DNA of 40,000 nucleotides from Anaerovorax sp. IOR16 (lineage in GTDB: Bacteria; Bacillota; Clostridia; Peptostreptococcales; Anaerovoracaceae), in the NCBI RefSeq assembly GCF_017168145.1, contig NZ_JADQTL010000009.1:1080799-1120798 (forward strand), given 5' to 3'. Below the pieces are notes generated by a model. It was not told where the DNA came from. It made no database searches and was given only the letters and a program-made list of their open reading frames with translations. Below are positions 5,487-40,000 of this stretch, one piece after another; position 1 is the first letter of the stretch; every line of letters starts with the position of its first letter. A program made the translations under genes and the position numbers.

Positions 5487-5615
5487 TTAAACCAACCTTT
5501 CATAGCACATCAGTAAGTCTTCAAGTTCTCCATCGAAATTCTGTTTGCTTAAATCATTACCAATTGCTCGTATACGTTTTATAATTCCTCTTTTAATTGC
5601 TTCATAACTACTCAT
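5487..5615 (-). CDS. small hypothetical protein, 42 aa
   Basis: Below the track cutoff. ATG at 5615 is preceded by GAGGTGGG. Translates MSSYEAIKRGIIKRIRAIGNDL... Confidence 0.35.
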   Translation of the reverse strand: MSSYEAIKRGIIKRIRAIGNDLSKQNFDGELEDLLMCYERLV

Positions 5616-5695
5616 TTCGCCCACCTCATTCAATATATTATTTTTATTTTATTTATTATTATGTAATTAAAGCAAATCAAATGTTCATTTGCTTT

Positions 5696-5971
5696 TTATT
5701 TTTCTGCTAGAAGATTTTTCACTTGTTGCAATAGCTGAACAGCTTCTCCTTTTGATTCCAAATCACCGTCTTCAATTGATTCAATGATTCTGTCAATGCT
5801 ATTTTGATATTGTTTTGGGTAATATTTTTTAAATGTCACGCTTTCATTTTTAGCATCTAAAATAATTTCCAATGAATCATTGGTTTTAATTTGTAGAACC
5901 TTTCGAATTTCCGTTGGAATAACTATACGACCTACGTTATCTATCTTTCTCACAATTCCTGTTGTTTTCAT
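5696..5971 (-). CDS. AbrB/SpoVT-family DNA-binding protein (transition-state-regulator or antitoxin-like)
   Basis: N-terminus MKTTGIVRKIDNVGRIVIPTEIRKVL matches the swapped-hairpin AbrB motif (GRIVIPxEIR). AAAGGAGAA SD. Confidence 0.75.
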   Translation of the reverse strand: MKTTGIVRKIDNVGRIVIPTEIRKVLQIKTNDSLEIILDAKNESVTFKKYYPKQYQNSIDRIIESIEDGDLESKGEAVQLLQQVKNLLAEK

Positions 5972-6006
5972 ATGCTTTTCTCCTTTATCTTCATCAAATA
6001 ATCGTT

Positions 6007-6375
6007 TTATCGACTCTTAATATTTATTTCTAAATTCTTATTCATTAATCCATCAAATAAAATACTATACCCTTGCCCTTCATAAATTCCTGTTATATTA
6101 ATCATATATATTTCTTTTTCTGTAATATTGTTTTCGCTATCTTTTTCATAATTTATATTAGTATCTATCTTTATTCCTTTAAAAGTAAATCCATTCGGTA
6201 ATTCAATTTTTTCTCTATAATATCTGTTAGAAAATAATTTTATATCATTATTATACCCATCAAGAATATATTCTGCTGTTTCAAACTGTTTAATAAAATC
6301 ATTATCAAATTTATTTATAGCTTCTTCAATTTTAGCAAAATTTTTTGAACTTGAAGCACTAATTTTTATTCCCAT
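6007..6375 (-). CDS. hypothetical protein
   Basis: ORF track; GAAAGGA upstream. Confidence 0.55.
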   Translation of the reverse strand: MGIKISASSSKNFAKIEEAINKFDNDFIKQFETAEYILDGYNNDIKLFSNRYYREKIELPNGFTFKGIKIDTNINYEKDSENNITEKEIYMINITGIYEGQGYSILFDGLMNKNLEINIKSR

Positions 6376-6431
6376 TTTATTTACTCTATCCTTTCACAAT
6401 TTAGCATCAATTCAATATTTTATCTACTCTG

Positions 6432-6647
6432 TTATTTAATTGGATTCCCCATCATATCAAATTGTTTTTTACATATGTCACATTCTAAAAAATGTACTTT
6501 TGATATAGTTCCAACTCTTTCAGTTTTATTTACATGAGGACAACCATTTTTAATAATTTCTTGTTTTTCAATTTCTTTTTGATTTTCCTCTTGTATTATT
6601 TCAGCAAGTATTTCATCTGTAAGGTTTTCAAATTCTTGATTGCTCAT
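6432..6647 (-). CDS. small Cys-containing (CPH...CDIC) hypothetical protein
   Basis: ORF track; AGAAGG upstream. Confidence 0.55.
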   Translation of the reverse strand: MSNQEFENLTDEILAEIIQEENQKEIEKQEIIKNGCPHVNKTERVGTISKVHFLECDICKKQFDMMGNPIK

Positions 6648-6695
6648 TGCTGTTACCTTCTTTCTATCCCTATAAATCTACAATTTTATTCGTTG

Positions 6696-6860
6696 TTATT
6701 CTCCTAATCCTTCTTCCCAACCCCAGTCTGGGTCTATGGAAGCAATTCTGGCTTCTTCATAATCCATACCACAAATTTCAACTTTCCAATCTATCCATGA
6801 TTCTCTACTATCTTTCTTTCCTGTTTTCTGTAGATATTCTTTATAACTGTAATCCAACAT
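6696..6860 (-). CDS. small hypothetical protein, 54 aa
   Basis: Below the track cutoff. ATG at 6860 is preceded by GGAGGCG. Translates MLDYSYKEYLQKTGKKDSRESWIDW... It replaces the implausible plus-strand ORF 6647..6898. Confidence 0.45.
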   Translation of the reverse strand: MLDYSYKEYLQKTGKKDSRESWIDWKVEICGMDYEEARIASIDPDWGWEEGLGE

Positions 6861-8257: not shown

Positions 8258-9343
8258 CTAGTTGTCCCTCCTGAATATAGTATCATTCAACAGCTTAGCC
8301 TTGAAGTTATAACTGTCAAAATGCTGCATGATACCAAGATATGACTGTACGGACTGGTTTATCTCTTCAAAGTCCTTAGAACCTTCCGAATAAGCTTTCT
8401 GAAGCATTTTAAACTTCCTCTTAATCTTCTTTAAGGTCTTTTTCTTTAGTTTTCTATGTGTAGCCCATACTCTAAAGCCTACAAACTCAATACCGCACGA
8501 TATGGGTCTTATAGCGGTCTTATTATTCAAGTCTAGGTCGAGAACTTCTTTTAAGAATACTTCAATATCGGTTTTAATCTCATGTAAGTATTTTTTATCA
8601 TCTGCCAGTATTATTATATCATCCATGTATCTTACATAGTAGTGTATTCCAAGCTTATGCTTAACATACTGGTCAAGCTCATTGAGATATATGTTAGCGA
8701 ATAGCTGAGAGGTTAAATTTCCTATCGGTATCCCTACATCAAAAAGCCTATCTTCTTCACTGCATTGGTCAGGCTCCATTCCAGCAGGAAGTCCAAAAGG
8801 AACATCTTCACTGTTTATAATCGTATCTAAAAGCCAAATAAGGTCTTCATCCTCAATCTTATTTTTCAGGATATCCAATAGTATTTTATGATTAATCCTG
8901 TAGAAATATTTTGATATATCCAGTTTTAAATAATAGTATTTCTGTGGCTTCCTGTTTACTTGCCTTAACCAATATTGAAGCCTATCAGCAGCCTTATGAG
9001 TACCTTTTCCAACTCTGCACCCATAACTATCATAAATGAATTGCTTGTCATATATCGGATATAAGACCCTGTATATAGCCCATTGGACAACTCTGTCCTT
9101 AAAGGGTAATGCCATTATTAACCGCTTTTTAGGGTCATAGACAAAGAATTCTCTATACCTACCAACCTCATAAGTCTTATATATTAATTCATTTTGAATC
9201 GTGATTAAATTCTCTTCAAGGTTTGTATTGAACTCCAGTACATCACGTCTGTATCGTTTGCCTTTCTTTGCTTCATTTGTTGCTATATAAAGATTTTCAA
9301 AGTCTATTATTTCAGAAAATATATTTCTTAGTTTTTTAGCCAT
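8258..9343 (-). CDS. DGR-type reverse transcriptase
   Basis: RT motifs are present: LDISKYF, GIPIGNLTSQLFANIYLNELD (the [I/L]GxxxSQ signature typical of DGR RTs) and YVRYMDDIIILADD. Start placed at the ATG (MAKKLRNIF...) behind GAGGAAG; the track start at 9397 has no SD. Confidence 0.9.
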   Translation of the reverse strand: MAKKLRNIFSEIIDFENLYIATNEAKKGKRYRRDVLEFNTNLEENLITIQNELIYKTYEVGRYREFFVYDPKKRLIMALPFKDRVVQWAIYRVLYPIYDKQFIYDSYGCRVGKGTHKAADRLQYWLRQVNRKPQKYYYLKLDISKYFYRINHKILLDILKNKIEDEDLIWLLDTIINSEDVPFGLPAGMEPDQCSEEDRLFDVGIPIGNLTSQLFANIYLNELDQYVKHKLGIHYYVRYMDDIIILADDKKYLHEIKTDIEVFLKEVLDLDLNNKTAIRPISCGIEFVGFRVWATHRKLKKKTLKKIKRKFKMLQKAYSEGSKDFEEINQSVQSYLGIMQHFDSYNFKAKLLNDTIFRRDN

Positions 9344-9423
9344 AAAGCACACTTCCTCATAATAATTAGTCATATGGCTATGTGTAGCACTTTTCATTTC
9401 TTACTTGGTGCTTCCATAGCAAT

Positions 9424-10740
9424 TTAATATTTTGCTTTGTCAGCAGGGAAATGAGCCCCTTTGTCCTCTCTGTACTGGATGCAAGCCCTTGAGCTTGCAA
9501 CATCTGACAATGAGAGCAGAGCGGAGCGGAAACCAATGTTGTTGCTCGAGTTCGAACGAAGGTTGTTCAAGTTCAAGGCGAAAACCCCAGCAACAGAACC
9601 GTCGTTCCAGTAGCCACCACGAATCGGAAGCCTTTCTCCGTAGTTACGAACCCAGAAGCCATCTCCTCCACACGAAGCATCTACTGGAGCAATCCCTAAA
9701 GCTTTTAACAACGTCGGTACTGTTACACCGCTCTTAGCAGCTAAAGTCTCAAAATTACAATGGCTGTATCTATAGTATTCGTTAACATCTCCACCAGTGT
9801 AGTTAGGATTATCCCTTACAGTATTTATGATTGGGTCTCCTCCTACATTGTTTCCATCTTTGTCCGCAGTACCAGGAGTTGTATTGTCAATTTTAAGAGT
9901 TGAAGCTGTGCCTGGTGCTGCCAAATTACCATCCTGTAAGACAGCTTTCCACCAAGAGCTTGTATCTCCAAAGTCAGCGTTTGCCATTGCAGCATCATTG
10001 TCCTTTACAATCTGTATTTCACCATTCTTAAGTCTTAGTCCAGCAGTCCACTCCCAGACATTACCGTTCAAGTCGAATATACCTTCATTTGTTCCATCAT
10101 GAGCCCATGCTGCTGAACCTGAACCAGTTGCAACTCTACCAGTATGATGATATTTAGTGCCATCAAATTCATTGGCTCTGTTGTTCCAGTTATAGTCTAG
10201 TAACCAATCGTAAGTTTGAACTCCGACCTCATGTAGTGCACTGTGTTCACCTCCACAATAATTGTTACCCCTTGGCATGTATCCGTTTTTCTTGCACCAT
10301 AAGGCTATTGCAGTCCATTCAGCATTCGTCATAAGATGCCAGCCTGCCCCTTTGTTTTTGCAGTATTGCACCGCTTGGTCAAAGTTCACATAGACTCTAG
10401 GGTCTTTCATTGGAAGTGAGTAAGCTCTATCATTTACAACTATGTTTTGATACTTAGATATCAGGATTTCATCCTTAACAACACCATCCACGATAAAGGC
10501 TGGATGCGTTGTATTAGGAGCACCGTCAATCACATCAGATAAGTTGAATTTTGGTATCCTAACCATTACTGAAGGCATCCCAAGTTCATCAAATAAATAA
10601 CTCTCTAATTCTTGCCCGTTTACATCGTCAATTTCTACTGGTATTAATGAACAATCTTTCATTATATATTTAGTATCATTAATAATTGATTTATAATCTT
10701 TGCTTGTTTTATTCCATTGTTTACTCGTAATTTTAAACAT
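9424..10740 (-). CDS. DGR target protein with C-terminal C-type-lectin/FGE-like fold
   Basis: Contains GWHLMTNAEW, GIFDLNGNVWEWTAG and a C-terminal RGGYWNDGSVAGVFALNLNNLRSNSSNNIGFRSA. It lies directly upstream of the RT on the same strand. AAAGGAGAT SD. Visibly G+C-richer than all neighbours. Confidence 0.85.
   Translation of the reverse strand: MFKITSKQWNKTSKDYKSIINDTKYIMKDCSLIPVEIDDVNGQELESYLFDELGMPSVMVRIPKFNLSDVIDGAPNTTHPAFIVDGVVKDEILISKYQNIVVNDRAYSLPMKDPRVYVNFDQAVQYCKNKGAGWHLMTNAEWTAIALWCKKNGYMPRGNNYCGGEHSALHEVGVQTYDWLLDYNWNNRANEFDGTKYHHTGRVATGSGSAAWAHDGTNEGIFDLNGNVWEWTAGLRLKNGEIQIVKDNDAAMANADFGDTSSWWKAVLQDGNLAAPGTASTLKIDNTTPGTADKDGNNVGGDPIINTVRDNPNYTGGDVNEYYRYSHCNFETLAAKSGVTVPTLLKALGIAPVDASCGGDGFWVRNYGERLPIRGGYWNDGSVAGVFALNLNNLRSNSSNNIGFRSALLSLSDVASSRACIQYREDKGAHFPADKAKY
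9480..9499 (-). promoter_or_regulatory. hairpin about 20 nt 3' of the VR (candidate DGR target-recognition hairpin)
   Basis: On the minus strand TGCAAGC-TCAAGG-GCTTGCA forms a 7-bp perfect stem. It follows a GC-rich run (TCCGCTCCGCTCTGCTCTC) at the VR 3' end. Confidence 0.45.
9520..9621 (-). other. candidate DGR variable region (VR)
   Basis: These 34 codons encode RGGYWNDGSVAGVFALNLNNLRSNSSNNIGFRSA and are rich in AAC codons. They sit at the position where VRs lie in CLec-fold targets. Exact ends cannot be set without the TR. Confidence 0.6.
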
Positions 10741-21197: not shown

Positions 21198-21220
21198 CGA
21201 TTCAAAGGAGGTTAATGAAT

Positions 21221-22069
21221 ATGAATACAGTATTACAAACAGAGCTGCACCCCACTGATAACAAACAACAATCTAATATTATTGATATAAATCACTTATT
21301 AAATCCCACACAAGAGCCGTTACCTATTATGGATTCTATTAATCCAATAGAAGAAAAGACAACTAAAAAAGAACAAGATGCTCACCCTATTAAATCATTA
21401 GAGGACATTAATGCAATCATTAAATATTTCTTGTCAAACAATCAATACCGCAATGCTATGTTATTTGTTGTAGGTATTAATTTTGGTTTAAGATATTCAG
21501 ATTTAAGTGAAATTAGATTCAAGGATTTAATAGATAATAACAAAGGATTCAGAAAAGAATTCCAACCAAATGAAAAGAAAACAAATAATTTACGTCATAT
21601 ATATATCAATGATGCTGTCAAAGAAATAGTAACAATCTATCTAACACAAATGGCTGAGAATGGCGTATATAAGTCATTAGATGATTATTTATTCGTTGCT
21701 GAAGGAACAAACAATATTAAAACAAGACAAATTGAATATGTAGATAATGAAGAAATAAAATATAAAACAGTGCAAGCACCAATTACGATAAGAGCAATGA
21801 ATCCTATACTAAAACAGGCAACGGAATATCTTAGAATTAAAGGTAGATTTTCAACACACAGCTACAGAAAGACATTTGCATATCATATATTATTACAAGA
21901 AAACAATACAAATCATAATGAACGTCAAATAGAGTTCTTGCAAAAAATATTCGGTCACAGTAATCAAACAACAACGTTGCACTATGCAGGATTTACAGAA
22001 GATGAAATTAAGGCAGCATATCTAAATCTAAATCTTGGACTAGATGCAATAAGACAATATAAACATTGA
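21221..22069 (+). CDS. tyrosine recombinase/integrase-family protein (no SAM-like N-domain)
   Basis: Catalytic-core pattern present: GLRYSDL (Arg), HSYRKTFAYH (H-x-x-R), GHSNQTTTLHYAG (His ... Tyr). The ATG at 21221 lies 9 nt after GGAGG; the track start at 21215 lies 3 nt after it. Confidence 0.75.
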   Translation: MNTVLQTELHPTDNKQQSNIIDINHLLNPTQEPLPIMDSINPIEEKTTKKEQDAHPIKSLEDINAIIKYFLSNNQYRNAMLFVVGINFGLRYSDLSEIRFKDLIDNNKGFRKEFQPNEKKTNNLRHIYINDAVKEIVTIYLTQMAENGVYKSLDDYLFVAEGTNNIKTRQIEYVDNEEIKYKTVQAPITIRAMNPILKQATEYLRIKGRFSTHSYRKTFAYHILLQENNTNHNERQIEFLQKIFGHSNQTTTLHYAGFTEDEIKAAYLNLNLGLDAIRQYKH

Positions 22070-24662: not shown

Positions 24663-27407
24663 TTGAAATTAGAAAATACTTATATAATGAATTTAGAAGC
24701 TTGTTATATTTATAAAGACATTATTGAAGAAAAGAAATTAACATATAAAAAACGAGATTTAGCAAAATTGTTCTCAGCTACGATACCCTACAGTTTAGAA
24801 ACTATAAGAATGGACAATTATTTCTCTGACACGTTTTATGCGATAAATGGAAAACAGTATACAAGAAAGGTAATCAATCTGACTTTTGATAAACACTATA
24901 CTGTATGGGATGAAAATTGTGAATATAAAAATAGACAGGGAGAATTAAAAAAAGGAAAAAGAAAAATTGTTGCTACTAAAAAGAAAATTAGGAAATATTT
25001 ATATGAAAATGGATTTATGATGGATGGTATCAAATACGTTTTTTATAAACGTGGAGCTGGAAAAGCTAAAAATGGATACGCACTATATATCCAAGAAGAA
25101 TTAAAATATAAATTATTATTAAGAAGTAGATTAGGATTAAAATTTAATAAAAATGAATTGTTAGACCTAACTTCTTTATTGGCATATGAATCTTTAGTAT
25201 CTTCTGGAATTGAATTTACTATTAAACTAGACCCCAAAACTGAAATATTATTGATTGATGATATTTACGGTAAAGAATTTGAAAATTTAGCAAGCGTAAC
25301 AAGAGAAATAGATGGTAAAATAGTAACTCAAAATGAGAGAATTAAATTAATAAATTGTTTAACAGACGGTCAAGGGCTATTGGATGAATCTGTATTTATA
25401 GAATACAAAAAACAAGACAAAGGATTTATGTTGCTCAGAAGCGATATGTTTAAAGATTGTGCTTTTAATACTAAACTTCAAAAATGGTTTAGAGAAAATA
25501 ATATAGATAAACTAACAGATATGTTTGGGAATATATATGATTCCTCTAAAATTAAACTAATAATCACTCCAAATTCTTTGAAATTCTTAAAATTTGCATA
25601 TAAATTTACTGAATCGCAAGATAAAGAAAAATATAATAAATTGAATTCAGAAGAAAAGAAACATTACGAAAAAATATGTTATGAATATTGGCTGAACAAT
25701 ATAGACGATATATTTGGAGTAGTTAAGTGTGACAAAGAAGGTAATTATGGAACATATAATAGGACTACTTATCAATTACTAAACAGCATACCAACTTTAA
25801 CATACGATGACTTAATGGAAATTACAAAAGAAGAACGTGAATATGTGATGTTATTAAAAAATGACAATGCTGTTTTTAGAAATTATTTATGTTCTGATGT
25901 TGAATATGCTTTGAAAATAGAACAAGCATTAGAAGATGAGAATATTGAATTATATGAAAATGTTGATTTGCTGAATGCATTATTACTTGTTAATTCTGAT
26001 ATTCAATATACCAAAAAATTCAAAAAGATGAAAAGTAATTTAATATCTAATTATATTAAATATTTAAAAAAGGGTAAGATACGTTTAAAAGATACTAAAT
26101 ATGTTACTATAATTTCAAACCCGTATGAAATGTTATTAGCCACAATTGGAGATTATAATGGTCGGTCTATAATGAAAGACAGAGAGGTCTATTGTCCGTA
26201 TTACAACGACAATCAAGAATTTTGTGTATCACGAAACCCCCATATTAATGCCGGAAATGTTATGTTTGCTCAGAATATAAATCATGAAGAATATAGTTGG
26301 TTTAATTTTACCGATAATATAATGGCAGTTAATTTTCATGATAATGATATGCCCGATAGATTACAAGGCGAAGATACAGATAGTGATACAAATTTAGTAA
26401 TGCCACATCCTATATTATGTAGAGCAGCCAAATATTGTGAAGCTCACTTCCCTACTCCTATCAATGATGTTTGTGGGAGTTCTAAATTGAGAAAGTATAA
26501 TATGGCAGAACTTCAAAAGTTAGATGTAATTTTAAGCGATAATTATATTGGTAAGATTATTAATCTTTCACAGATTATTAATTCTTATTTAAATGATGCG
26601 ATTTATAATAATACTTCAAAAGATATTATTGAAACTTTATATGCCGCAAGTAGTAAATTATCAAGTTTGAGTCAGATTGAGATTGATAAAAGTAAAAAAG
26701 TATTTGATAATGTAAATATGGGGAAAGAATTAAGTAATATTAGAAAAATTCCATATTTAAAATACATAGAAGAAAAAGATAAATATGGTCAAATGGCAAG
26801 GAAAATGATTGTTCCAAAATTTTTTAGTATGATTTCAGATTTTAATGAATATAGAGTATTTGAAGAATTTAATACTCCATTAGATATATTACAAAAGGCT
26901 TTAGTGTTTGAGGGTGGGAAAAGATTAAAGGGTGAAAAGAATAAGAATTTTGGAGAATTGCTAGTTAAAAGTAAAGAATTAGAAGGAATTTATCAGATTA
27001 ATAGTGCTGTGGCGATTTTTAAAATTATTGAACAGTGTGGAAAAAAAATAAACGGATTAAAATTAAAAGATTGTATTTTAAATGATAAGGCAAAAATAAC
27101 GGTTGAAAAAAAGACTAAACAAGAAGCTATTGCCAAATTAAATAAGCTTAATCCTAGTGAAGCTACAATTTTGTCTATTTTAAACCAAGCTTTAAATAAA
27201 AAAGAAAATGATATTTTGGGATTTAAACCTTATGGAATGTTAACATTGAATTTATTATTTAGTTCAAAAAAAATAAAAGTGTTAAAATGCTTTAAAAACA
27301 ATAATATACAATTAGATGAAATTTTAATGAAGATTAAAGATAATTATGATTATAATATCTTTGGAAATAAGTATCAGAAAATTACGTTAAATGAGTTAAA
27401 ATTATAG
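24663..27407 (+). CDS. putative single-subunit two-barrel RNA polymerase (YonO / RdRP-like family)
   Basis: 914-aa ORF; TTG start 6 nt after GGAGG. VSRNPHINAGNV (26229-26261) followed about 45 aa later by RLQGEDTDSDT (DxDxD at 26373-26387) mirrors the beta-prime NRAPTLHR...NADFDGD arrangement. KRGAGKAKNG (25047-25076) resembles the beta-like AGRHGNKG lysine motif. The CDS is certain; the function is motif-level inference. Confidence 0.6.
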   Translation: MKLENTYIMNLEACYIYKDIIEEKKLTYKKRDLAKLFSATIPYSLETIRMDNYFSDTFYAINGKQYTRKVINLTFDKHYTVWDENCEYKNRQGELKKGKRKIVATKKKIRKYLYENGFMMDGIKYVFYKRGAGKAKNGYALYIQEELKYKLLLRSRLGLKFNKNELLDLTSLLAYESLVSSGIEFTIKLDPKTEILLIDDIYGKEFENLASVTREIDGKIVTQNERIKLINCLTDGQGLLDESVFIEYKKQDKGFMLLRSDMFKDCAFNTKLQKWFRENNIDKLTDMFGNIYDSSKIKLIITPNSLKFLKFAYKFTESQDKEKYNKLNSEEKKHYEKICYEYWLNNIDDIFGVVKCDKEGNYGTYNRTTYQLLNSIPTLTYDDLMEITKEEREYVMLLKNDNAVFRNYLCSDVEYALKIEQALEDENIELYENVDLLNALLLVNSDIQYTKKFKKMKSNLISNYIKYLKKGKIRLKDTKYVTIISNPYEMLLATIGDYNGRSIMKDREVYCPYYNDNQEFCVSRNPHINAGNVMFAQNINHEEYSWFNFTDNIMAVNFHDNDMPDRLQGEDTDSDTNLVMPHPILCRAAKYCEAHFPTPINDVCGSSKLRKYNMAELQKLDVILSDNYIGKIINLSQIINSYLNDAIYNNTSKDIIETLYAASSKLSSLSQIEIDKSKKVFDNVNMGKELSNIRKIPYLKYIEEKDKYGQMARKMIVPKFFSMISDFNEYRVFEEFNTPLDILQKALVFEGGKRLKGEKNKNFGELLVKSKELEGIYQINSAVAIFKIIEQCGKKINGLKLKDCILNDKAKITVEKKTKQEAIAKLNKLNPSEATILSILNQALNKKENDILGFKPYGMLTLNLLFSSKKIKVLKCFKNNNIQLDEILMKIKDNYDYNIFGNKYQKITLNELKL

Positions 27408-30955: not shown

Positions 30956-30976
30956 GTAAAATTCTTCCTTTTGTTT

Positions 30977-31006
30977 GAGGGGTGGCTATATGCCTCCCCT
31001 CTTTTG
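30977..31006 (+). terminator. rho-independent terminator after hup
   Basis: GAGGGGTGG-CTATATG-CCTCCCCTC followed by TTTT. Confidence 0.65.
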
Positions 31007-31010
31007 ATAT

Positions 31011-31085
31011 GGATATATAGCTCAGGGGTAGAGCATACGACTTTTAATCGTAGGGTCGAGATTTCGAAATTCTCTATATCCACCA
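31011..31085 (+). tRNA. tRNA-Lys (anticodon UUU), with encoded CCA
   Basis: Folded by hand. Acceptor stem GGATATA/TATATCC, D arm GCTC-AGGGGTA-GAGC, anticodon stem TACGA/TCGTA with loop CTTTTAA. The T arm GAGAT-TTCGAAA-TTCTC has 4 bp plus one mismatch. Discriminator A followed by CCA. Confidence 0.8.
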
Positions 31086-31114
31086 GTAATAAATATAGAA
31101 AGGATGGTGCTTTA

Positions 31115-32098
31115 ATGGCTGAAATAAGTCCTAAAATTAGATTTTATAATAAGGAAAAATTAGAAAAAATTAATTCAGAAACATTAAAATTATGGAATAA
31201 GTATAAAATTGACATGTCAATTCGTGAGTTAAGTCAAAGAACAGTTGATGGATATGAAAACGATTTGCAGCATTGGTGGATATATATTTATGATAAACAA
31301 GGAAATCAATGTATTACAGATTTAGACGAAGATGATATTACTGAATTTTTATATTTTTGTAAAACCCAAGGTAATAATTCAAGAAGAATGAAACGTAGAA
31401 TGTCATCTATTGCAGCATTTTATAAATTTTTACGAAGAAAGAAAATTATTAAAGAAAATCCGATGGAATTTATAGAAAGACCAAAGAAAGATACCGATAT
31501 TATTACACAGACATTTTTAACCCCCGAACAAGTTGAATTAATGAAAGAAAAATTAATAGAGCATATTAAAAATTGTACTGATGGAAGGTTTCACCATGCT
31601 TTACAACTTCAATGTTACGCCCTATTCTCTTTGTCAACAATGGCAAGGGTTACTGCTGTAAGTAATACAAGATGGGAACAAATAGATTTTGAAAATCGTG
31701 TTGTTAAAGATGTTTTGGAAAAAGAAGGATATATTGTAGATTTATTTTTCTCAAAAGAAGTGAAAGATATATTGTTAAAACTACAAAAATATCGTAAAGA
31801 AAACGATATTGATGATAATGGATATGTATTTGTAACTACATATGATAAAAAAACTGATGTTACCACTACAGGAACATTAAACCAATGGTGTAAGGTAATT
31901 GGAAATATGATTGATGTCCCTACCCTTCATTGTCATGATTGGAGACACAGTGGTGCTACTTTGCTTAAAAATAAAGGTATGGAATTAGAAGAAGTGTCAA
32001 AATTGCTGAATCATAAGAGTACAGATGTTACTACTAAGTTTTACATTAAGACTGATACTACTCAATTACAAGCAAATAAAGATAAGTTTGAGATATAA
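31115..32098 (+). CDS. int: tyrosine recombinase / phage integrase (XerC/D-like, with SAM-like N-domain)
   Basis: The N-domain ...TVDGYENDLQHWW...SSIAAFYKFLRRKKIIKENP is present. The catalytic region has ARVTAV (Arg), HDWRHSGATLL (H-x-x-R) and LNHKSTDVTTKFY (His ... Tyr). Start set at the ATG at 31115 behind AAAGGATGG, because the track start at 30971 runs through the terminator and the tRNA. Confidence 0.85.
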   Translation: MAEISPKIRFYNKEKLEKINSETLKLWNKYKIDMSIRELSQRTVDGYENDLQHWWIYIYDKQGNQCITDLDEDDITEFLYFCKTQGNNSRRMKRRMSSIAAFYKFLRRKKIIKENPMEFIERPKKDTDIITQTFLTPEQVELMKEKLIEHIKNCTDGRFHHALQLQCYALFSLSTMARVTAVSNTRWEQIDFENRVVKDVLEKEGYIVDLFFSKEVKDILLKLQKYRKENDIDDNGYVFVTTYDKKTDVTTTGTLNQWCKVIGNMIDVPTLHCHDWRHSGATLLKNKGMELEEVSKLLNHKSTDVTTKFYIKTDTTQLQANKDKFEI

Positions 32099-32660
32099 TA
32101 ATAAAATTATAATTAAATTATGCGAAATAGAGTAGCATTGAAAAACTATACATTGCATAGTAGAGAACTAACCATTAATTGCTCGAATTGATGTGTCGTG
32201 AGGTCATACGACTTTAAATAATAACGGAGACAACCTTACTCGTACAATGTGCTATCAATCGGGGCGAGAGAATTGATATTCTATAGCGGTGGGTTGGTTA
32301 TGTTAGCCAATGATAGAAATTAACAATTAACGTATATGGTCGGGATGAAGACCTAAAACTCATTCCCATTACAGAGTAAACTGCGAAAAATCATTTTTTA
32401 ATTAGATGTATTACTATTGGGTTACTGATAGTATATTGAATACGGTGAGAATCCAAAACAAAGAAGTCTTAGATAGAATATCTGAGAATGTATTAAAACA
32501 CCACTAGGTCGCCAAGCAAAAGTGGTACACAAATTAGGAGTGTTCGGTAAAACACAGATTAAACTAATGTTTAATAAAACTATCATAAGGCACACCTATC
32601 TGTTTTTCCTTTGGATGGGATAATTATAATAAATAAAATAAAACAATAATTTGATATTGA
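32099..32660 (+). ncRNA. candidate large structured RNA or structured leader (class unknown)
   Basis: About 560 nt with no ORF of 60 aa or more. It is visibly G+C-richer than its surroundings. Hairpins include ATCAAT-N12-ATTGAT (about 32254-32277), TCTTAGAT-AGAAT-ATCTGAGA (about 32467-32487), CCACT-N15-AGTGG and GTGTT-CGGTAA-AACAC. Strand is assumed from gene orientation. Confidence 0.3.
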
Positions 32661-32669
32661 AAGGATGTG

Positions 32670-33758
32670 ATGGCTATAGCCAGAAAACCAAGAATTGCAG
32701 AAGCTACAGATACATTTGACGATAGCCATACATATAAATGTTTACGTTGTGGTGCTGAACATCAAAATCCAGTAAAAAAATTTTATAGGTCTGAATGGTC
32801 TGAATTGTTTTTAAAAAATGATAGATATGTTCCTTTATGTATTAAATGTGTTAATGAAATTTTTAGTAATATATCAAATAAATACGGAACCGAAACTGCT
32901 TGTATTATTTTATGTTATATGATGGACATCCCGTTTTATCATAGTTTATATGATAGTATTGTTAAAAATAATAATATATTTTCTATAGGTGTATATAAGA
33001 GACAATTAAACAATAAGCAATATCAATTTCAATCATTTCAACAAACAATTCTTAATGAAGAGTTATATAAAACAGATGACGATATACGAGAAGAAAAAGA
33101 AGTAAAATGGACTGCTGATAAAATAAAAAATAAGAATGATGCAATTAACATAATCGGCTATGACCCTTTCGATGGTTATTCAAGTAATGACCGTCGTTTT
33201 TTATTTGGTGAACTTGTTAAATATTTTGATGATGATATTTCGGAGGATACATTTAAACTTTCTCAAATTATTCAAATTGTAAATAATAACAATCAAATTC
33301 GTCAATACGATTTATTAATATCTTCATTAAATCCAATTAGAGATGCAAATGATATAAAAATGCTTGGTATTTTAAAGAAAAATTGTGTTGATAGTAATGA
33401 TAAAATTGCAAAAGAAAATGAAATATCTGTGAAAAATCGTTCAAATAAAGACATTGGCAAGTCTACACTTACCTATCTTATGAGAGATTTGAGAGAGAAA
33501 GATTTTAAAAAAGCTGAAGCAAATTATTACGACCAATTAAAATCTGAAGGTACTTTATGGGCTATATCAATGTCAAATAAAGCTATAAAACAAAATGGAA
33601 TGTTTGACGAAAATGATAAACAAGAGATTTTTGATATACAAAGAGAAACAATTCAAAAATTACAATCTGAATTAGATGAAGTGTTGGAAAAGAATAGATT
33701 ATTATTAATAGAAAACGCAGATTTGAAATCAAATAAAGACGGTGATAAAAATGAATAA
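32670..33758 (+). CDS. putative terminase small subunit / DNA-packaging accessory protein (Zn-ribbon N-terminus)
   Basis: It sits immediately upstream of terL and overlaps it. CLRCGAEH...CIKC zinc-ribbon; C-terminal coiled-coil-like region. Function is inferred from position only. Confidence 0.4.
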   Translation: MAIARKPRIAEATDTFDDSHTYKCLRCGAEHQNPVKKFYRSEWSELFLKNDRYVPLCIKCVNEIFSNISNKYGTETACIILCYMMDIPFYHSLYDSIVKNNNIFSIGVYKRQLNNKQYQFQSFQQTILNEELYKTDDDIREEKEVKWTADKIKNKNDAINIIGYDPFDGYSSNDRRFLFGELVKYFDDDISEDTFKLSQIIQIVNNNNQIRQYDLLISSLNPIRDANDIKMLGILKKNCVDSNDKIAKENEISVKNRSNKDIGKSTLTYLMRDLREKDFKKAEANYYDQLKSEGTLWAISMSNKAIKQNGMFDENDKQEIFDIQRETIQKLQSELDEVLEKNRLLLIENADLKSNKDGDKNE

Positions 33759-35604
33759 AATTAGAAAAAAAGTTCTTATGACTGAATTTAAAAGAAGAAT
33801 TTGCGAATTAGATGCAGAATCAATAGCTTATTATAGAAGGAATCCTTGTATTGCTTCTGAAGATTTGCTTGGAATTAAGTTAATCGACGCACAACGTTAT
33901 ATATTACAATCATCTTGGAATACTCCTCATTGTGTTTGGTGTTGCTCACGTAACTTTGGAAAATCATTTATTGGTGCAATATTTATGATATTGAAAGCAA
34001 TTCTTTATGAGAATCAGGCTATTTATATTGTATCTAGTGTAGGTTCTCAATCAAAAGAAACATTTGGTAAAATTGAAGAAATTGTTTTAAATATCGGGAA
34101 AACCGCTGCATCCATTAAATCTTTAAAAGATATTGTAAGAAAAGAAACTAAAAAGTCCCCAAATAATAAAACTGGATTTAGCCATGCTCCTGAAAGTTAT
34201 ACTGTTGAATTTTACAATGGAAGTGAAATTTTTACATTAAATGGAAAGCCTGATAATAATAGAAGTAAACGTTCAACTTTAGTTTTTTTTGATGAAGCAG
34301 CATTTAGTTCAGATGAATTAATTTCTGCTTGCGAAGCATTTGCAACACAAAATACTGATTTTACAACATCTACTGATGAAAGTTATAATCCAGAGACAGA
34401 AACAAGAAAAGTTCCAACTCAATTAATATATGCTTCATCTCAAGACGAGATGGATAAAATGTTTTATAAACACTATAAGAATTATGCAAAAAGAATGTTG
34501 GCTGGAGATAGAAACTATTTTGTATGTGATATGATTTGCGATACAGCAATAAAAACATTTATGGATGGGAAGCCTTATGTTCCACTTCTTACTCAGTCAA
34601 AAGTCGACTCAGCTATGAAAGCAAATAAAGAAAAAGCTTTAAGGGAATATTATAATCAACCTACAAGAGATGGTGGAGTTTCACAAATTATTAAATGGCA
34701 TGTTATTCGCAGAAACGAATCGTTTTATTTACCGCAATTATATTGGAAACCAAATAATAAAATTGCATTAGCATTTGACCCTGCTAGAACAATGGATAAT
34801 TCTATTTTAGGAGCGATGAATTTATATCAAGATGATGAATTAGGTTGGTGTGGAGATATTGTTAATTATGTTAACTTTATAGATATTGCAAGTAAAAAGA
34901 AATATAAATTAGACTCTAATAGACAATTGGATGAAATTAGACAAATTATATTGAATTATAATGGCAACCACCCTGATTATGAATATCTTGATTCCTTAAT
35001 GATTGACCAAGGGGCAGGTGGTGGTGGAACAAGTACATATGCAGATGGATTACTAAATGATTGGAATGATAAAACAGGTCGCACCCATAGAGGTTTGATT
35101 GATGCTAATCATGATATATATGCTGGTTACTCTGATATATATCCTAATGCAATAGATAAACTTCGTTTAATAAGTCCTAGAAAATATAGAACTCAAATGG
35201 TAGAAGAGTTTATTGAATTAATGAACTTAGGAGTTATTAAACTCCCATATGAATTTAAAGGGCAAGATTTTATTAAGATAATAAAAAAAGAAGATAATAA
35301 TATTGATGAAGAAGAATTTGAAACGTATGATTTGAGTGATGATGAGATGTTAAGCTTAACTCAAATTGATTTAATGAAAAATGAAATCACATCAATTCAT
35401 CGATTTAAAAACCCCGAAGGCACATCGGTATCTTACGCTTTATCTAAAGAGAAAGAAAATAAAATGCACGATGATAGATTTTATGTGGCTATTATGTTAG
35501 CTCATAGGTTACATGAAATTAGACGTGGGCAAATAATTAATAAAACAAATAACGAAGCAGACCTCTCTTCCCTGCCCTCTTGTGTTTCATCTGTAGATTT
35601 TTAA
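33751..35604 (+). CDS. terL: terminase large subunit
   Basis: Walker-A-like CSRNFGKSF and Walker-B-like TLVFFDEAAFS, a nuclease-half-like C-terminal region, and about 620 aa. It sits at the head of the structural module. The ATG at 33751 overlaps the upstream stop. Confidence 0.8.
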   Translation: MNKIRKKVLMTEFKRRICELDAESIAYYRRNPCIASEDLLGIKLIDAQRYILQSSWNTPHCVWCCSRNFGKSFIGAIFMILKAILYENQAIYIVSSVGSQSKETFGKIEEIVLNIGKTAASIKSLKDIVRKETKKSPNNKTGFSHAPESYTVEFYNGSEIFTLNGKPDNNRSKRSTLVFFDEAAFSSDELISACEAFATQNTDFTTSTDESYNPETETRKVPTQLIYASSQDEMDKMFYKHYKNYAKRMLAGDRNYFVCDMICDTAIKTFMDGKPYVPLLTQSKVDSAMKANKEKALREYYNQPTRDGGVSQIIKWHVIRRNESFYLPQLYWKPNNKIALAFDPARTMDNSILGAMNLYQDDELGWCGDIVNYVNFIDIASKKKYKLDSNRQLDEIRQIILNYNGNHPDYEYLDSLMIDQGAGGGGTSTYADGLLNDWNDKTGRTHRGLIDANHDIYAGYSDIYPNAIDKLRLISPRKYRTQMVEEFIELMNLGVIKLPYEFKGQDFIKIIKKEDNNIDEEEFETYDLSDDEMLSLTQIDLMKNEITSIHRFKNPEGTSVSYALSKEKENKMHDDRFYVAIMLAHRLHEIRRGQIINKTNNEADLSSLPSCVSSVDF

Positions 35605-35622
35605 AAGAAAGGTGGTGAATAG

Positions 35623-36114
35623 ATGACAGAGAATAAAGAAGATTTTATTATTACAGTTATAAATGACGAAGATAACGCTACTGTTATTGAAACATCATAT
35701 GAAGATGAAATATCTAAATACGAAAATGATATTTTATTATCTGCATTAAAAGATTATGATTCTACAAAACGTCAATATTCAGCATATCTTAAAGATAAAG
35801 CATCAAATGATACGTTAACTATTGAATTTATTGATGAATTAGCAAATGGAATCCATTCGGATGTATCTAAAGTGCAGACGGCAAATAATCTTATCAGAAG
35901 ATATATTATAACAGATGATATTATAGGAAAAACATATGAGAGTATCGAAAGTAATGTAAATACAAATTATAGACTTTCATATGGCGATTATAGCACACAA
36001 AGAAATAAATCAAAAAAACTTGATGATGTTAAAAATACAGTAAATATTTTTAATAAACAAATTAATTTAAAACAATTAATACGTGAAAGTATTCCTCTTA
36101 CATATGCTGAAGGT
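35623..36114 (+). CDS. putative portal protein, exon 1 (interrupted by IStron-like element)
   Basis: GGTGGTGAAT SD. The ORF ends in a stop just inside the insertion. Joining 36114 to 38008 keeps the frame (...PLTYAEG|YYGTYIVCLR...). The portal call rests on position after terL and a combined size of about 539 aa. Confidence 0.55.
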
Positions 36115-36700
36115 AACTAAACTGTTAAAAATAACTTATAAATAGTTATAAAACTTAACAATATTTATAAGTTTTAGATAGAACCGAATTAACAGAGAGC
36201 CTTGCATACCAAGTAATTGGTGTGTACTTCGGGTTAATTGCAGGTAATGGGTAAAGCCTTACACCAAAACGGATAACGAAAGTTAAAACGGGAATGGTAC
36301 GAAAGTAGAAAAAACGTAAGGATGGACTATGGTGAAATAAAAGCTGTATTTAGGTGATACAGTCCTAAGGTCTATAAATAATCCCTGTTCATGCAGGCAC
36401 TTCCCTTAACGTAAAGTCGATGGGAAAGCTTCAACGACTATCTCCTTGTGGGAGAGTAAAACCGCAAGCTAATGGCGGAAGAAAAATCCGACTCCTTATA
36501 GAAAATAAGGATGAACAAATAGTCTACGCACGTCTTGAAAAAGAGTGATTATTAGCGTGAGCGAAATAATGCTTATAAGTTGCGATTATAAGTAAATATA
36601 TAAGAGTTATATGCTCTATAAATTTTATAAGATTTTATTTGAGCAGTAGCGTGATGAACTACTGTTTTATTATATTTAATTTTAAGAGAAAGGAGGTAAA
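36115..36700 (+). ncRNA. group-I-intron-like structured RNA (5' part of the IStron)
   Basis: Exon AAGGU (36110-36114) can pair with GCCUU (36199-36203), giving a U-G wobble at the junction, extended by CUGUUAA (36122-36128)/UUAACAG (36189-36195). Also present: CCAA-GUAA-UUGG (36209-36220), UAAC-GAAA-GUUA (36274-36285), UAC-GAAA-GUA (36298-36307), and a candidate P7 pair GACUA (36325-36329)/UAGUC (36520-36524). Confidence 0.5.
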
Positions 36701-36703
36701 TTT

Positions 36704-37843
36704 ATGATAAAAGGGTTTAAAACACAAATTTATCCAAATAAAGAACAACAGGAGAAGATAATTAGGTTTTGTAACGCTAGTCGATTTGCGTATAATTGGG
36801 CTATTGCAATAGAACAAGATAATTATAAAAATGGAGGAAAATTTATATCTGGATATAATTTAACTAAAATGTTTACTCAATTTAAAAAACAAGAAGGTAA
36901 TGAATGGTTAAAGGAAATATCTGGACGTGCTTTAAAAGTTGCTATTTTAAATGCTGGACAATCTTATGAAAATTTCTTTAAAGGCAGAGCTAAGTATCCT
37001 AACTTTAAATCTAAAAAAAGAAGTAAAAAGTCATGTGCAACACATGAAGGAACTACTATAATCGAAAAGAAAAGAATTAGATGTGAAAAATTAGGTTGGA
37101 TTCCAAGTCATAAACATAATATTCCTATTGGTGAAAATATAAAATATTATAACCACAAATTATCTTTTGACGGTATAAATTTTTGGTTTAGTGTATCAGT
37201 AGAATTAGAAGATTATAAAAATACTAAACCAAAAACAGAATCTGTTGGCATTGATTTAGGAATTAAAACTTTAGCGACATGTTCTAATGGAATAATATGC
37301 AAAAAACCTAATATAAAGAAAGAACAAAAGAAATTAAAAAGATTGAAGAAAAGAGCATCAAAACGATATCAAAAAATGATTGATTATTCTAAGCAAACGA
37401 AAATCAAGTTTGTAAAATTAGAGAAATCAAAGAATTTGCTTAAACTTGAAAAACAAATTTTGAAACAATATCAAAAAATTAACAATAAGTTAACGACAAA
37501 TATACATACTTTCACAAAATCATTAATTAATTTAAATCCACAAGCTATTGTAATTGAAGACTTAGATGTTAATGGTATGAGAAAAAATAGACATTTATCT
37601 AAATCTATAAATGAAGCTAAATTTTATGAAACACGTAGGCAATTAGTATATAAATGTAATTGGTATGGAATTAATTTAGTTATTGCTGATAGATGGTATC
37701 CTAGTAGTAAAACTTGTTCAAATTGTGGTTGTATCAAAGAAAAATTAAGTTTAAGTGAACGTATATATGTTTGTGAAGATTGCGGTCTAATTATAGATAG
37801 AGATTTGAACGCAAGCATAAATTTAAGAAATTTAGCAATGTAA
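36704..37843 (+). CDS. tnpB: TnpB (IS200/IS605-family RNA-guided RuvC nuclease)
   Basis: Typical N-terminus MIKGFKTQIYPNKEQQEKIIRFCNASRFAYNWAI. RuvC-I in VGIDLGIKTLAT, RuvC-II in AIVIEDLDVNGM. Zinc finger CSNCG...CEDCG followed by DRDLNASINL (RuvC-III). Strong AAAGGAGG SD. Confidence 0.9.
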   Translation: MIKGFKTQIYPNKEQQEKIIRFCNASRFAYNWAIAIEQDNYKNGGKFISGYNLTKMFTQFKKQEGNEWLKEISGRALKVAILNAGQSYENFFKGRAKYPNFKSKKRSKKSCATHEGTTIIEKKRIRCEKLGWIPSHKHNIPIGENIKYYNHKLSFDGINFWFSVSVELEDYKNTKPKTESVGIDLGIKTLATCSNGIICKKPNIKKEQKKLKRLKKRASKRYQKMIDYSKQTKIKFVKLEKSKNLLKLEKQILKQYQKINNKLTTNIHTFTKSLINLNPQAIVIEDLDVNGMRKNRHLSKSINEAKFYETRRQLVYKCNWYGINLVIADRWYPSSKTCSNCGCIKEKLSLSERIYVCEDCGLIIDRDLNASINLRNLAM

Positions 37844-38007
37844 TTTAACTACATGTTAAATATGTACTCAGACCGTACTGAGGATTTTAAGTCTGTGGAG
37901 TTCTACATCAAACTAGAGTAGATTTATCGAAATAGAGAACAATGAAACAGAAAGTATAAAGTTAAGAAATGAAATTTTATAAAATTTATAGAGTTTTATA
38001 ACTTTTG
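37844..38007 (+). ncRNA. 3' part of the TnpB omega-RNA (reRNA) scaffold / intron 3' segment
   Basis: In TnpB elements the guide RNA scaffold spans the 3' end of tnpB to the right end. This ORF-free 164 nt contains the CTCAG-ACCGTA-CTGAG hairpin and ends at the proposed 3' splice site. The 5' limit probably lies inside tnpB and is not determined. Confidence 0.45.
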
Positions 38008-39135
38008 TATTACGGTACTTATATTGTTTGTTTAAGAAATAACGGAAATAGTTATATTGTAGACCATTATCCTATCGGTGTTGCATATATGAGTGAATAT
38101 ACATACGGTGGGAAACCAGTTGTTGAAATTAATATCAAAGAACTTGAAACAAGATTGAAAAAGACATATGAAAAAGATAAAAAGAAAAAACCAATTTTCT
38201 TTGAAAATATCGAAAAGGATATCCAAGCAAATTATCCACCAGAAGTTTATAAAGCTTATAAAAATAAAGAAACTGTTGTTAGATTGGATACAAAATATAC
38301 TGGAGTAATAAGAATTGGAAATATGGGTAGAAGGTATGGGGTATCCCCTATTCTTCGAGCGTTAAAATCAGCCCTTATGCTTGAAAATTTTGAGAAAAGT
38401 GATAATACTAATGCTAAAGCTAAAGCTAAGAAAATTATACATCAAATTATGCGTAAAGAATGTCTGGGCTCTGATTTAAACAAAAAGGGTTTCGAATATG
38501 CTATTCACGCACATAACGAATTATGCAGTGCGTGGAAAAATAAAACTGTCGTATATACTTCTATTCCGCAAGTTGAAAAAGTTGTTTATGTAGAACCTAA
38601 AGTAGATGATACTAATGCTGATAAAATTAATATTTATCGAAGTAAGATTATGACAACACTTGGTATAGGGTTTATAGACACTAATGTAGCTAATTTTTCT
38701 GTAGCGAATATATCATTAGACCAGCTAATGAAGACTATTAATTCTATATCTCAACAACTTGAAAGAATTGTTCAAGATTGGTATGAAGTATTGTTTGAAA
38801 ATGAAGGAATCGATTTAGAATACCTTCCTACTATACAAATTATAGACAGTGAAGCAATGGATATGGAAATGAAAAAAGATTTAGTTGAATTACTTTATAG
38901 TAAATTAAATTGTTCAATGAGTACGGCTCTTGATATTTTAGGATATTCTCTTGAAGACGAAAAACAAAAACGTATTTCCGAAAATGAACAAAATTTAGAT
39001 TCAGAAGTATTTTTACCTCATAATTCACAATATACAAACAGTGGTTTAAATAAAAATGTAGGTGCTCCTTCAGATAGTAAAAATTTAGACAAACAATCTG
39101 ATGATAAAAACTACAATAAAAAAGTGAGAAAATAA
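38008..39135 (+). CDS. putative portal protein, exon 2
   Basis: The frame opens only 2 codons upstream (stop at 37999-38001), and there is no SD or ATG for the track's TTG start. It continues the exon 1 frame after removal of 36115-38007. Confidence 0.55.
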   Translation, partial: YYGTYIVCLRNNGNSYIVDHYPIGVAYMSEYTYGGKPVVEINIKELETRLKKTYEKDKKKKPIFFENIEKDIQANYPPEVYKAYKNKETVVRLDTKYTGVIRIGNMGRRYGVSPILRALKSALMLENFEKSDNTNAKAKAKKIIHQIMRKECLGSDLNKKGFEYAIHAHNELCSAWKNKTVVYTSIPQVEKVVYVEPKVDDTNADKINIYRSKIMTTLGIGFIDTNVANFSVANISLDQLMKTINSISQQLERIVQDWYEVLFENEGIDLEYLPTIQIIDSEAMDMEMKKDLVELLYSKLNCSMSTALDILGYSLEDEKQKRISENEQNLDSEVFLPHNSQYTNSGLNKNVGAPSDSKNLDKQSDDKNYNKKVRK

Positions 39136-39138
39136 TAA

Positions 39139-39315
39139 ATGAATAGAGTTCAAATTAGATGCCCTTGTTGTGGCAATATCATTGAAATTGATTTGGTCAG
39201 TGGAAAAATATCTACTGATTTTTTTAATGGAGAAAATGAAGAAATTGACAGAGATGAATTATCTAAGCTTGGTTATGAATTTGGGATAACTAAGGAGGTG
39301 AATAGCGATGGATAA
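39139..39315 (+). CDS. small zinc-ribbon-like protein, 58 aa
   Basis: Below the track cutoff. Translates MNRVQIRCPCCGNIIEIDLVSGK... It overlaps the next gene's start by 8 nt. Confidence 0.45.
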   Translation: MNRVQIRCPCCGNIIEIDLVSGKISTDFFNGENEEIDRDELSKLGYEFGITKEVNSDG

Positions 39316-40000
39316 AATTACTTTATTCTCAAATTATGTTGAATTGAGTGAAGCATCTGAAGATGAAAATATCATAGCAAAATTTGTGTTGTGTGATTTT
39401 GATGTTAATAAAAATAAAGTGAAATTAAACCGTGAAACGATTGAAAATTGGTTTGCGACGATTATAAATCAACCTTTAGTTGGCAAAATAGTTACTTCAT
39501 ATGATGGCACTTCTGATTTTTCAGGGCATAATATGAAAATTATTTCTAAAATTGATAAAAATGGAAATTTAATAAAGTTTGTTGAATTTGATACTAATGC
39601 ATTTGGTACATTTATAAGCTGTGCAATTGAAGAGATAAATGGTATTGAATGTATTACTGCAACAGCAGAAATCTGGAGAAGATATCCAAAAGCTTGCCAA
39701 TTAATTATAGATAGAATTAATAGCGGAACTTTATATAGTAGTTGGGAAATTTTAGTAAGTGAAGCACATTTGGATTCTGATGTAAAAGTTATTGATAATG
39801 GCAAATTTACAGCACATTGCATTTTAGGTAAAAATGTTTCTCCTGCTTATGACAGTTCAAGATTGTTAGAAGTGGCAGAAGAAAATAGTAGTTTTGAATT
39901 GTTTAATGCTTTATCTCAAGATATTGCATTAAGTTCAAATAACACATCTAAAGAACAGGAGGAAAATATTTTGGATGGAAAGAAAGAAAGAGTAGAAACC
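39308..40000 (+). CDS. head-module protein (possible prohead protease or scaffold), 3' end cut by window edge
   Basis: ATG at 39308 follows AAGGAGGTG. The frame is open to the end of the window (MDKITLFSNYVELSEASEDENIIAKFVLCDF...). It replaces the antisense track ORF 39469..39822. Function is guessed from position only. Confidence 0.55.
   Translation, partial: MDKITLFSNYVELSEASEDENIIAKFVLCDFDVNKNKVKLNRETIENWFATIINQPLVGKIVTSYDGTSDFSGHNMKIISKIDKNGNLIKFVEFDTNAFGTFISCAIEEINGIECITATAEIWRRYPKACQLIIDRINSGTLYSSWEILVSEAHLDSDVKVIDNGKFTAHCILGKNVSPAYDSSRLLEVAEENSSFELFNALSQDIALSSNNTSKEQEENILDGKKERVET

Follow-up and report, generated by a model that had tools for sequence, protein, structure and literature searches.

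A portal gene split by a predicted TnpB-only group B IStron in an SPbeta-like prophage of Anaerovorax sp. IOR16

Why does the gene that follows terL in a prophage of Anaerovorax sp. IOR16 stop after 165 codons, and what is the second reading frame that takes up some 1.9 kb further on? The locus lies in a stretch of 40,000 nucleotides (nt) that was analysed as a whole (hereafter the window: assembly GCF_017168145.1, contig NZ_JADQTL010000009.1, positions 1,080,799 to 1,120,798), numbered here from its first letter; features are on its plus strand unless noted otherwise. The upstream open reading frame (ORF; 35623-36120, 165 amino acids) ends at the stop codon 36118-36120, and the downstream one (ORF2; 38005-39135, 376 amino acids) has no ATG and no ribosome-binding site at its start; a first-pass annotation, made from the sequence alone, had described this stop and the missing start signals correctly. 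The answer we consider very likely is that the portal gene of this SPbeta-like prophage carries a functional group B IStron (a group I intron combined with a transposon-derived element) that encodes TnpB only and is removed by splicing.

On the evidence of profile, homologue and fold comparisons, the two ORFs are halves of one portal gene. They follow directly on terL, the gene for the terminase large subunit (33742-35604; phrog_2, E 4.9e-20, with a weak match to Pfam Terminase_6N). ORF2 alone aligns with positions 144-494 of the 501 of PHROG profile phrog_2739, and the fused product aligns with positions 13-494, colinear with portal proteins. With the fused portal as query, a search of 5.8 billion proteins gave more than 1,000 uninterrupted homologues of 520-560 amino acids that span 97-100% of it. 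Among the best 120, lengths run from 494 to 576 amino acids, coverage of the query is 87-100% and identity reaches 73%; the single fragment there is IOR16's own ORF2 (P0003). A sequence search of the PDB with the portal gave 0 matches, and fold comparison was therefore used. With an AlphaFold model of an uninterrupted homologue (P0001, 73% identical; predicted local distance difference test score 75.6), the top 50 PDB matches listed by Foldseek were all portals (best E 8e-10), among them T4 gp20, T7 gp8, G20c and SPbeta YonE. An exact look-up of the 376-residue ORF2 product found no record, and a scan of viral contigs for the portal found three relatives, none split at the IOR16 site (one ends with its contig at residue 315). 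The NCBI annotation gives two hypothetical proteins here, one for the exon 1 ORF (165 amino acids, WP_206459437.1) and, for exon 2, just a 348-residue fragment from an internal ATG, as would be expected if the portal were naturally encoded by two separate genes and an unrelated insertion sequence lay between them. That explanation is scarcely credible: ORF2 starts without an ATG or ribosome-binding site, the P0001 model is well predicted where the split falls, at the passage from a helix to a strand, and the listed homologues are all single genes except the IOR16 fragment. The profile alignment and the comparison with uninterrupted homologues had both been proposed in the first-pass annotation, and both bear out its view of a single interrupted gene.

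The limits of the interrupting sequence can be read from an intron-less relative, locus L088 (Logan SRR32069044, contig 204), which aligns to the window at 32433-36115 (93.8%) and 38014-40000 (96.4%). The two alignments share a 4-nt overlap, GGTA; since GGTA is repeated at both edges, the exact cut point is ambiguous within it. The alignment places the whole IStron at 36114-38015 (1,902 nt), starting UAACUAAACUGUU and ending UAUUACGG. Portal exon 1 is then 35623-36113 (codons 1-163 and the first two bases of Gly164, ending ...GCTGAAGG) and exon 2 is 38016-39135 (from the third base of Gly164 through Lys536 and the stop codon). The empty site in L088 reads GCTGAAGG/TAC, where the slash marks the insertion point. 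Removal of the element restores the host ORF exactly, as judged against L088, its portal protein P0123 (536 amino acids, uninterrupted, in the same 90% cluster) and 59 aligned homologues. The predicted spliced portal differs from P0123 at 11 of 536 residues and is identical to it across the junction. The exons differ from those of L088 at 66 nt, which together with the 11 residue differences fits purifying selection.

The first-pass annotation had instead deleted 36115-38007. This fuses the ORFs in frame, as claimed, but the exact junction does not hold: relative to L088 its 3' end lies 9 nt too far upstream and its 5' boundary is 1 nt off, and the product carries an extra YYG. Splicing after U36114 and after G38007 would keep the usual group I rules (a 5' exon ending in U, an intron ending in G) and could yield a minor alternative product. 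As the principal reaction it is highly improbable. Removal of 36114-38015 gives ...PLTYAEG/TYIVCLR without YYG, and this junction is shared by 59 of 59 aligned uninterrupted homologues. The 9 nt are missing there as well as in the 96%-identical intron-less allele; they belong to a right end, ...TATTACGG, that is conserved in all relatives. Moreover, the IStron BcISt1 was shown in vivo to splice after a G, its intron beginning with the U (PMC4227781).

The junctions of the element as delimited by L088 have features in common with those of its relatives. The insertion context is GAAGG/TAAC...TTACGG/TAC, with no target duplication beyond the shared GG; an extra TA common to both junctions occurs in the IOR16 copy and in L005 and is not general. 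Ends of the form GG/TAAC(T/A)AAC.GTT...TAT(T/A)ACGG/ are common to the relatives and are kept in L004, L005, L010, L006, L009, L001 and L002. At the left, TAACTAA places a stop in the portal frame five bases into the intron (36118-36120) and an immediate stop in one other frame. The right end (37994-38015) consists of an inverted copy of AGTTATAAAA (37994-38003) and the terminal ...UAUUACGG, and G38015 is predicted to be both the last intron base and the end of the guide-RNA scaffold. Just two exact copies of AGTTATAAAA occur in the window, at 36144-36153 (plus) and 37994-38003 (minus), subterminal and inverted, and they are possibly binding sites for an IS607 recombinase. With one mismatch allowed, the motif occurs in the window at chance level.

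How could such an insertion be removed from the transcript? The ~590 nt after exon 1 are ORF-poor and richer in G+C (33.1%) than the flanks (25-29%), as the first-pass annotation had seen. BLAST relates 36189-36597 to CbISt3 of phage c-st and to introns of Staphylococcus phage tail-lysin genes, and this homology, together with covariation, supports an IA2-type group I ribozyme at about 36199-36592. The core (36204-36592) comprises P2, P3, P4, P5/P5a-c, P6/P6a, P7, P7.1, P7.2, P8, P9, P9.1 and P9.2, with a P3/P7 pseudoknot. The internal guide sequence GCCUU (36199-36203), read from the sequence, pairs with AAGGU at the end of exon 1 (36110-36114) to form P1, in which the U36114-G36199 pair is directly followed by a loop. 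This long P1 loop holds an AU-rich hairpin of the left end (36133-36173; inverted repeat I6, 19-nt arms, 84% complementary) that contains the first AGTTATAAAA copy. P1 covaries with the target at the -3 base: AGG goes with CCU in four elements and GGG with CCC in nine.

The structure was tested for covariation with 86 hand-assigned pairs in 16 helices across 33 non-redundant relatives gathered by core pattern. In all, 82.1% of cells were paired (a percentage raised by the way the relatives were gathered, see below), compared with 36-44% in shifted controls and 63.2% in shuffled ones. Pairs changed on both sides numbered 69 of 86, compared with 45-61 (shifted) and 59.9 (shuffled), and the covariation score was 0.483, compared with 0.06-0.14 (maximum 0.141) and 0.19 (maximum 0.192), respectively; none of 500 shuffles reached the observed values. 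In the window no core helix is disrupted, and each of the 32 invariant core positions is preserved. Covariation among these sequences thus supports the ribozyme fold. A group II intron was also considered and rejected: there is no GUGYG 5' end and no domain V.

The remainder of the element encodes TnpB and carries the motifs of its guide RNA. The tnpB gene (36704-37843, 379 amino acids; ribosome-binding site AAGGAGG at 36690-36696) is intact. Its product matches Pfam HTH_OrfB_IS605, OrfB_IS605 and Cas12f1-like_TNB as well as phrog_506 (E 3.8e-102), aligns end to end with PDB 8IAZ (the IS607 TnpB of ISFba1; E 2e-60), and is named by NCBI an RNA-guided endonuclease of the InsQ/TnpB family. The RuvC residues D184/E285/D365 and the zinc finger C338/C341/C357/C360 (CxxC...CxxC) are present, in agreement with the first-pass annotation, which had also recognised the ORF-free tail after tnpB but put it at 164 nt; it measures 172 nt. 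In this tail lies a RAGATH-18 RNA (37892-37953; Rfam RF03064, E 3.6e-11; its 66.2 bits exceed the gathering score of 44.9), the core of the omega RNA or reRNA scaffold, which is also found 3' of tnpB in L001, L002, L004, L005, L006, L009 and L010. The predicted guide segment of the omega RNA is the start of exon 2 (38016-38035, TACTTATATTGTTTGTTTAA), its length being taken from relatives and from the published architecture of IS607 TnpB. The empty site in L088, GAAGG/TACATATATTGTTTGTTTAA, has one mismatch to it, a synonymous T-to-A change at guide position 4; the variant of the guide region in the intron-less relative reads TACATATATTG. The ORF region is enclosed by an AU-rich inverted repeat of 27 nt, 93% complementary (arms at 36614-36640 and 37967-37993; for the 3' arm a local hairpin is also possible), and an equivalent pair, differing in sequence, is the top inverted repeat in L004, L005, L010, L001 and L002. 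Between the 5' arm and the tnpB ribosome-binding site, a hairpin CAGUAG...CUACUG (36644-36664, loop CGUGAUGAA) is kept with compensatory changes in L004 and L010 and has the look of a k-turn or C-box.

What kind of element is this? The first-pass annotation was right to propose an IStron, with the portal gene split by a group I intron and a TnpB element, but its assignment to the IS200/IS605 type does not stand: the GG target, first base U, CGG end, AU-rich repeat and RAGATH-18 RNA are those of the IS607-type group B. As defined by Tourasse et al. (2014; PMC4227781), group B elements insert behind a target ending in GG, have a U of their own as first base and terminate in CGG; their U-G pair leads into a loop, a long AU-rich repeat surrounds the ORFs, the intron is of type IA2 and the affiliation is with IS607. 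All these traits recur in the IOR16 element, which has a 5' IA2 ribozyme, GG target, first base U, CGG end, TnpB with scaffold, and an AU repeat whose 27 nt fall within the 15-34 bp (>80% AU) of group B. It lacks ORF A, the IS607 serine recombinase TnpA: the gap between P9.2 and tnpB is just 111 nt, with no recognisable ORF A remnant, and none of 20 other window ORFs that were scanned has a resolvase-type domain. Since published members without ORF A exist (CsISt1, CbISt4), this marks a non-autonomous variant and does not exclude the element from group B. By sequence it is thus an IS607-type group B IStron, TnpB-only, in sense orientation in the portal gene. Group A, exemplified by CdISt1 of Clostridioides difficile, shares the 5' IA2 group I intron, the downstream TnpB and scarless restoration of the host gene. 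CdISt1 is set apart by a TTGAT-type target (TTGAT/ATTAT/TTTAT in group A), a 3' end in TCAG, a U at the close of the 5' exon, a TnpA of the tyrosine-HUH kind and a repeat that is short and GC-balanced. The IOR16 element has none of them: its target is GAAGG and its end ACGG.

Several known elements resemble this one closely. Tourasse et al. (2014; PMC4227781) list CbISt3 and CbISt4 for phages c-st and D-1873 of C. botulinum. Like the IOR16 element, these are IS607-type IStrons carried by phages: they hold an IA2 intron, have a target that ends in GG, terminate in CGG, surround their ORFs with an AU-rich repeat and have RAGATH-18 after ORF B. The CbISt3 ribozyme is 71-76% identical in nucleotides to that of IOR16 over 155 and 185 nt. 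CbISt3 differs, however, in having both ORF A (serine recombinase) and ORF B, in its 2.5-kb length, in its first base A and in its YomI-like host gene, and its TnpB is ~35% identical to that of IOR16. BcISt1 (Bacillus cereus ATCC 10987), the group B IStron studied by experiment, has a similar length (~1.9 kb), an intron that begins with U, a loop directly after the U-G pair and an intact ORF B, but it is chromosomal, not in a phage virion gene, and retains a truncated ORF A. CboIStron and CseIStron (Zedaveinyte et al., PMC10690162), with the ISFba1 TnpB (PMC11061315), show the same three-function design, made up of splicing, a TnpB with its guide RNA, and a 3' splice site that overlaps the boundary between scaffold and guide; they differ in that the IOR16 element lacks TnpA and its scaffold end is ACGG instead of UCGG. 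Finally, the introns of Twort, K-like Staphylococcus phages and T4 td belong to the same IA2 class with P7.1 and P7.2 and sit in essential phage genes, and those of Staphylococcus phages have nucleotide homology with the IOR16 ribozyme. Their nuclease is a protein-only homing endonuclease, in contrast to the RNA-guided TnpB and transposon ends found here.

Published work on these elements suggests how the IOR16 copy could operate. Splicing of CboIStron leaves no scar, and its TnpB requires TGGG, beside which it cleaves the empty site. The scaffold ends UCGG at the right end and the guide is the flanking exon; because the 3' splice site divides the two, bound TnpB represses splicing (PMC10690162). 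IS607 TnpBs guided by RAGATH-18 RNAs cleave DNA (Ren et al., 2024; PMC11061315). For IOR16 we infer splicing, TnpB activity and the target-adjacent motif from BcISt1, CboIStron and ISFba1. The first ~480 intron nt of the portal transcript would fold into the IA2 ribozyme, with P1 formed by the exon end AAGGU and the guide sequence GCCUU, and the 27-bp AU-rich stem would close the 1.3-kb tnpB loop and bring the 3' end to the core. Self-splicing would cut after G36113 and after G38015, releasing 36114-38015 and restoring the 536-residue portal ORF; translation of unspliced RNA would run to the stop at 36118-36120. The same RNA could double as TnpB mRNA. In unspliced RNA, the RAGATH-18 scaffold and the right end, continued by ~16-20 nt of exon 2, would serve as the TnpB guide RNA, with a scaffold ending ACGG and a guide beginning TACTTATATTG...; splicing and guide-RNA formation would be mutually exclusive. 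Directed by this guide, TnpB would cleave portal alleles that lack the intron, at GAAGG plus TACTTATATTG..., and so favour retention or homing of the element. With no TnpA, transposition to new sites would need a serine recombinase in trans.

A number of points weigh against the view that the portal gene carries a functional, spliced IStron. The structure was drawn by the author, partly from the IOR16 sequence itself plus few relatives. The 33 relatives were gathered with an exact 20-nt core pattern that fixes J6/7 along with the 5' P7 strand and the bases immediately preceding P7.2, which inflates by construction the paired percentage and the invariance of P7 and the junctions. The bases 5' to the internal guide sequence were examined for a P10 helix with exon 2, and no convincing one emerged. 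The target motif GAAGG, with A at -3, differs from the motifs that have been tested (TGGG, AGGAG, GAGGG), and the prophage may be defective. Lastly, the Rfam group I models, a search with which had been suggested in the first-pass annotation, gave no match in the window at the gathering threshold or at E<=10; they are likewise silent on the published CbISt3 of phage c-st and on the annotated phiIBB-SEP1 intron, so that this negative is uninformative and weak evidence.

If the prophage is decaying, the element could be a dead insertion in its portal gene, inefficiently spliced, with the portal reduced to a pseudogene. The absence of TnpA would be in keeping with this, as would the rarity of the arrangement: of more than 1,000 portal homologues, the 120 listed as best include no interrupted gene but that of IOR16, and a scan of metagenome contigs for the exact junction of exon 1 and left end found no second copy (0 matches). 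Published IStron copies also vary widely in splicing efficiency (PMC10690162). We nevertheless regard a dead insertion as unlikely, given that every core helix and the 32 invariant positions are intact, that tnpB and both exons are uninterrupted, that 66 nt differences from L088 in the exons amount to just 11 residue changes, and that the sense orientation and the ends suit scarless removal.

Does the element occur elsewhere? The intron core was found in 77 viral-contig loci, 18 of those listed having a TnpB match downstream (some duplicate earlier loci). It also occurs at 62 loci in genomes of Bacillota and others, and at 31 of these a TnpB is present, whole or as a remnant. The closest relatives, with TnpB 76-84% identical, occupy at least six other sites, mostly in phage genes, including the genes for a phage Holliday-junction resolvase and an uncharacterised phage protein, and a ribosome-binding site that serves a virion structural gene; a 991-nt deletion derivative (L010/L155) also exists. 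By the distribution of its sequences, the IStron family is mobile. It is also not confined to Clostridioides and Clostridium, the range given in the first-pass annotation: Staphylococcus phage records share the architecture in tail-lysin genes. In Staphylococcus phage SapYZU04 (L002, 1743-3626), a tail-lysin gene is split by an intron core, a TnpB (38% identical) and a RAGATH-18 RNA, with ends GGGG/TAAC...ACGG/, and is annotated as two tail-lysin coding sequences and a transposase. The closest relative of the IOR16 IStron (L004, 2419-6830; 78% identical) lies inside the ribosome-binding site (AAAGG/AG) of the virion structural gene. About 640 nt downstream of it lies a further set of parts, comprising a left-end-like sequence (4960-5011), a TnpB (5569-6723, 39% identical) and a RAGATH-18 RNA (6767-6828), which makes these tandem elements on one 36-kb viral contig. 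A megablast search of the whole region against phage records gave no match, and a TnpB-based scan of species-representative genomes confirmed no relative.

Three loci (L154, L157 and L160) carry the IStron family at one site in phage Holliday-junction resolvase genes (3' flank TAAAGATAGTG), with differing 5' exons (GACGAAGG/ and TCAAAAGG/); occupation of one site in diverged resolvase homologues is the pattern that homing would produce. A recent review holds that TnpB-only IStrons imply RNA-guided intron homing, with experimental validation still awaited (2026; PMC13565253). A phage-adapted lineage of TnpB-only IStrons could spread by such homing between co-infecting or recombining phages and not by transposition, an idea we put forward tentatively and would not expect to prevail on present evidence. 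If it were true, the guide, being the first ~20 nt of portal exon 2, would lead the prophage TnpB to cut intron-less portal alleles of related SPbeta-like phages, converting or excluding them. The synonymous T-to-A change at guide position 4 in L088 could then be an escape mutation. In addition, TnpB represses splicing in relatives, and repression here could couple portal production to expression of the element.

IStrons in phage genomes have been published before, and the IOR16 element adds another: a fully delimited, IS607-type IStron from a new host genus, Anaerovorax, in an essential virion gene. In the literature searched, no paper brings TnpB and a group I intron together with a portal gene in the way described here. 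The natural intron-less allele, 96% identical, offers a comparison partner, and the IOR16 locus with its empty-site relative forms a concrete pair for testing RNA-guided intron homing between phages. The locus also illustrates that genome annotation breaks IStron-split genes into 'hypothetical' fragments and that the Rfam group I models overlook this intron lineage.

The assignment of the prophage to the SPbeta-like phages follows from two findings: an ORF of 914 amino acids (24663-27407, plus) matches Pfam RdRP (PF05183, E 3.6e-6), like the SPbeta RNA polymerase YonO, and the neighbouring genes in L088 belong to the YonG_N, YonD_N, YonB and YomW families. Elsewhere in the window, the minus strand encodes a reverse transcriptase of 379 amino acids (within 8258-10740; RVT_1, E 3.8e-24). 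An Rfam RT-14 RNA (9378-9521, 77.7 bits) lies at its start, with an ORF of 438 amino acids with an FGE-sulfatase fold upstream. The locus looks like a diversity-generating or defence-type retroelement; a template/variable repeat was sought there and none was found, and PADLOC returned just a generic reverse transcriptase and matches of UG17/UG26-like type. Closer to terL, a tRNA gene (31011-31082, plus; 63 bits) overlaps the mechanical start of a tyrosine-integrase ORF (30971-32098, plus), and a second Phage_integrase ORF lies ~9 kb upstream (21215-22069, plus).

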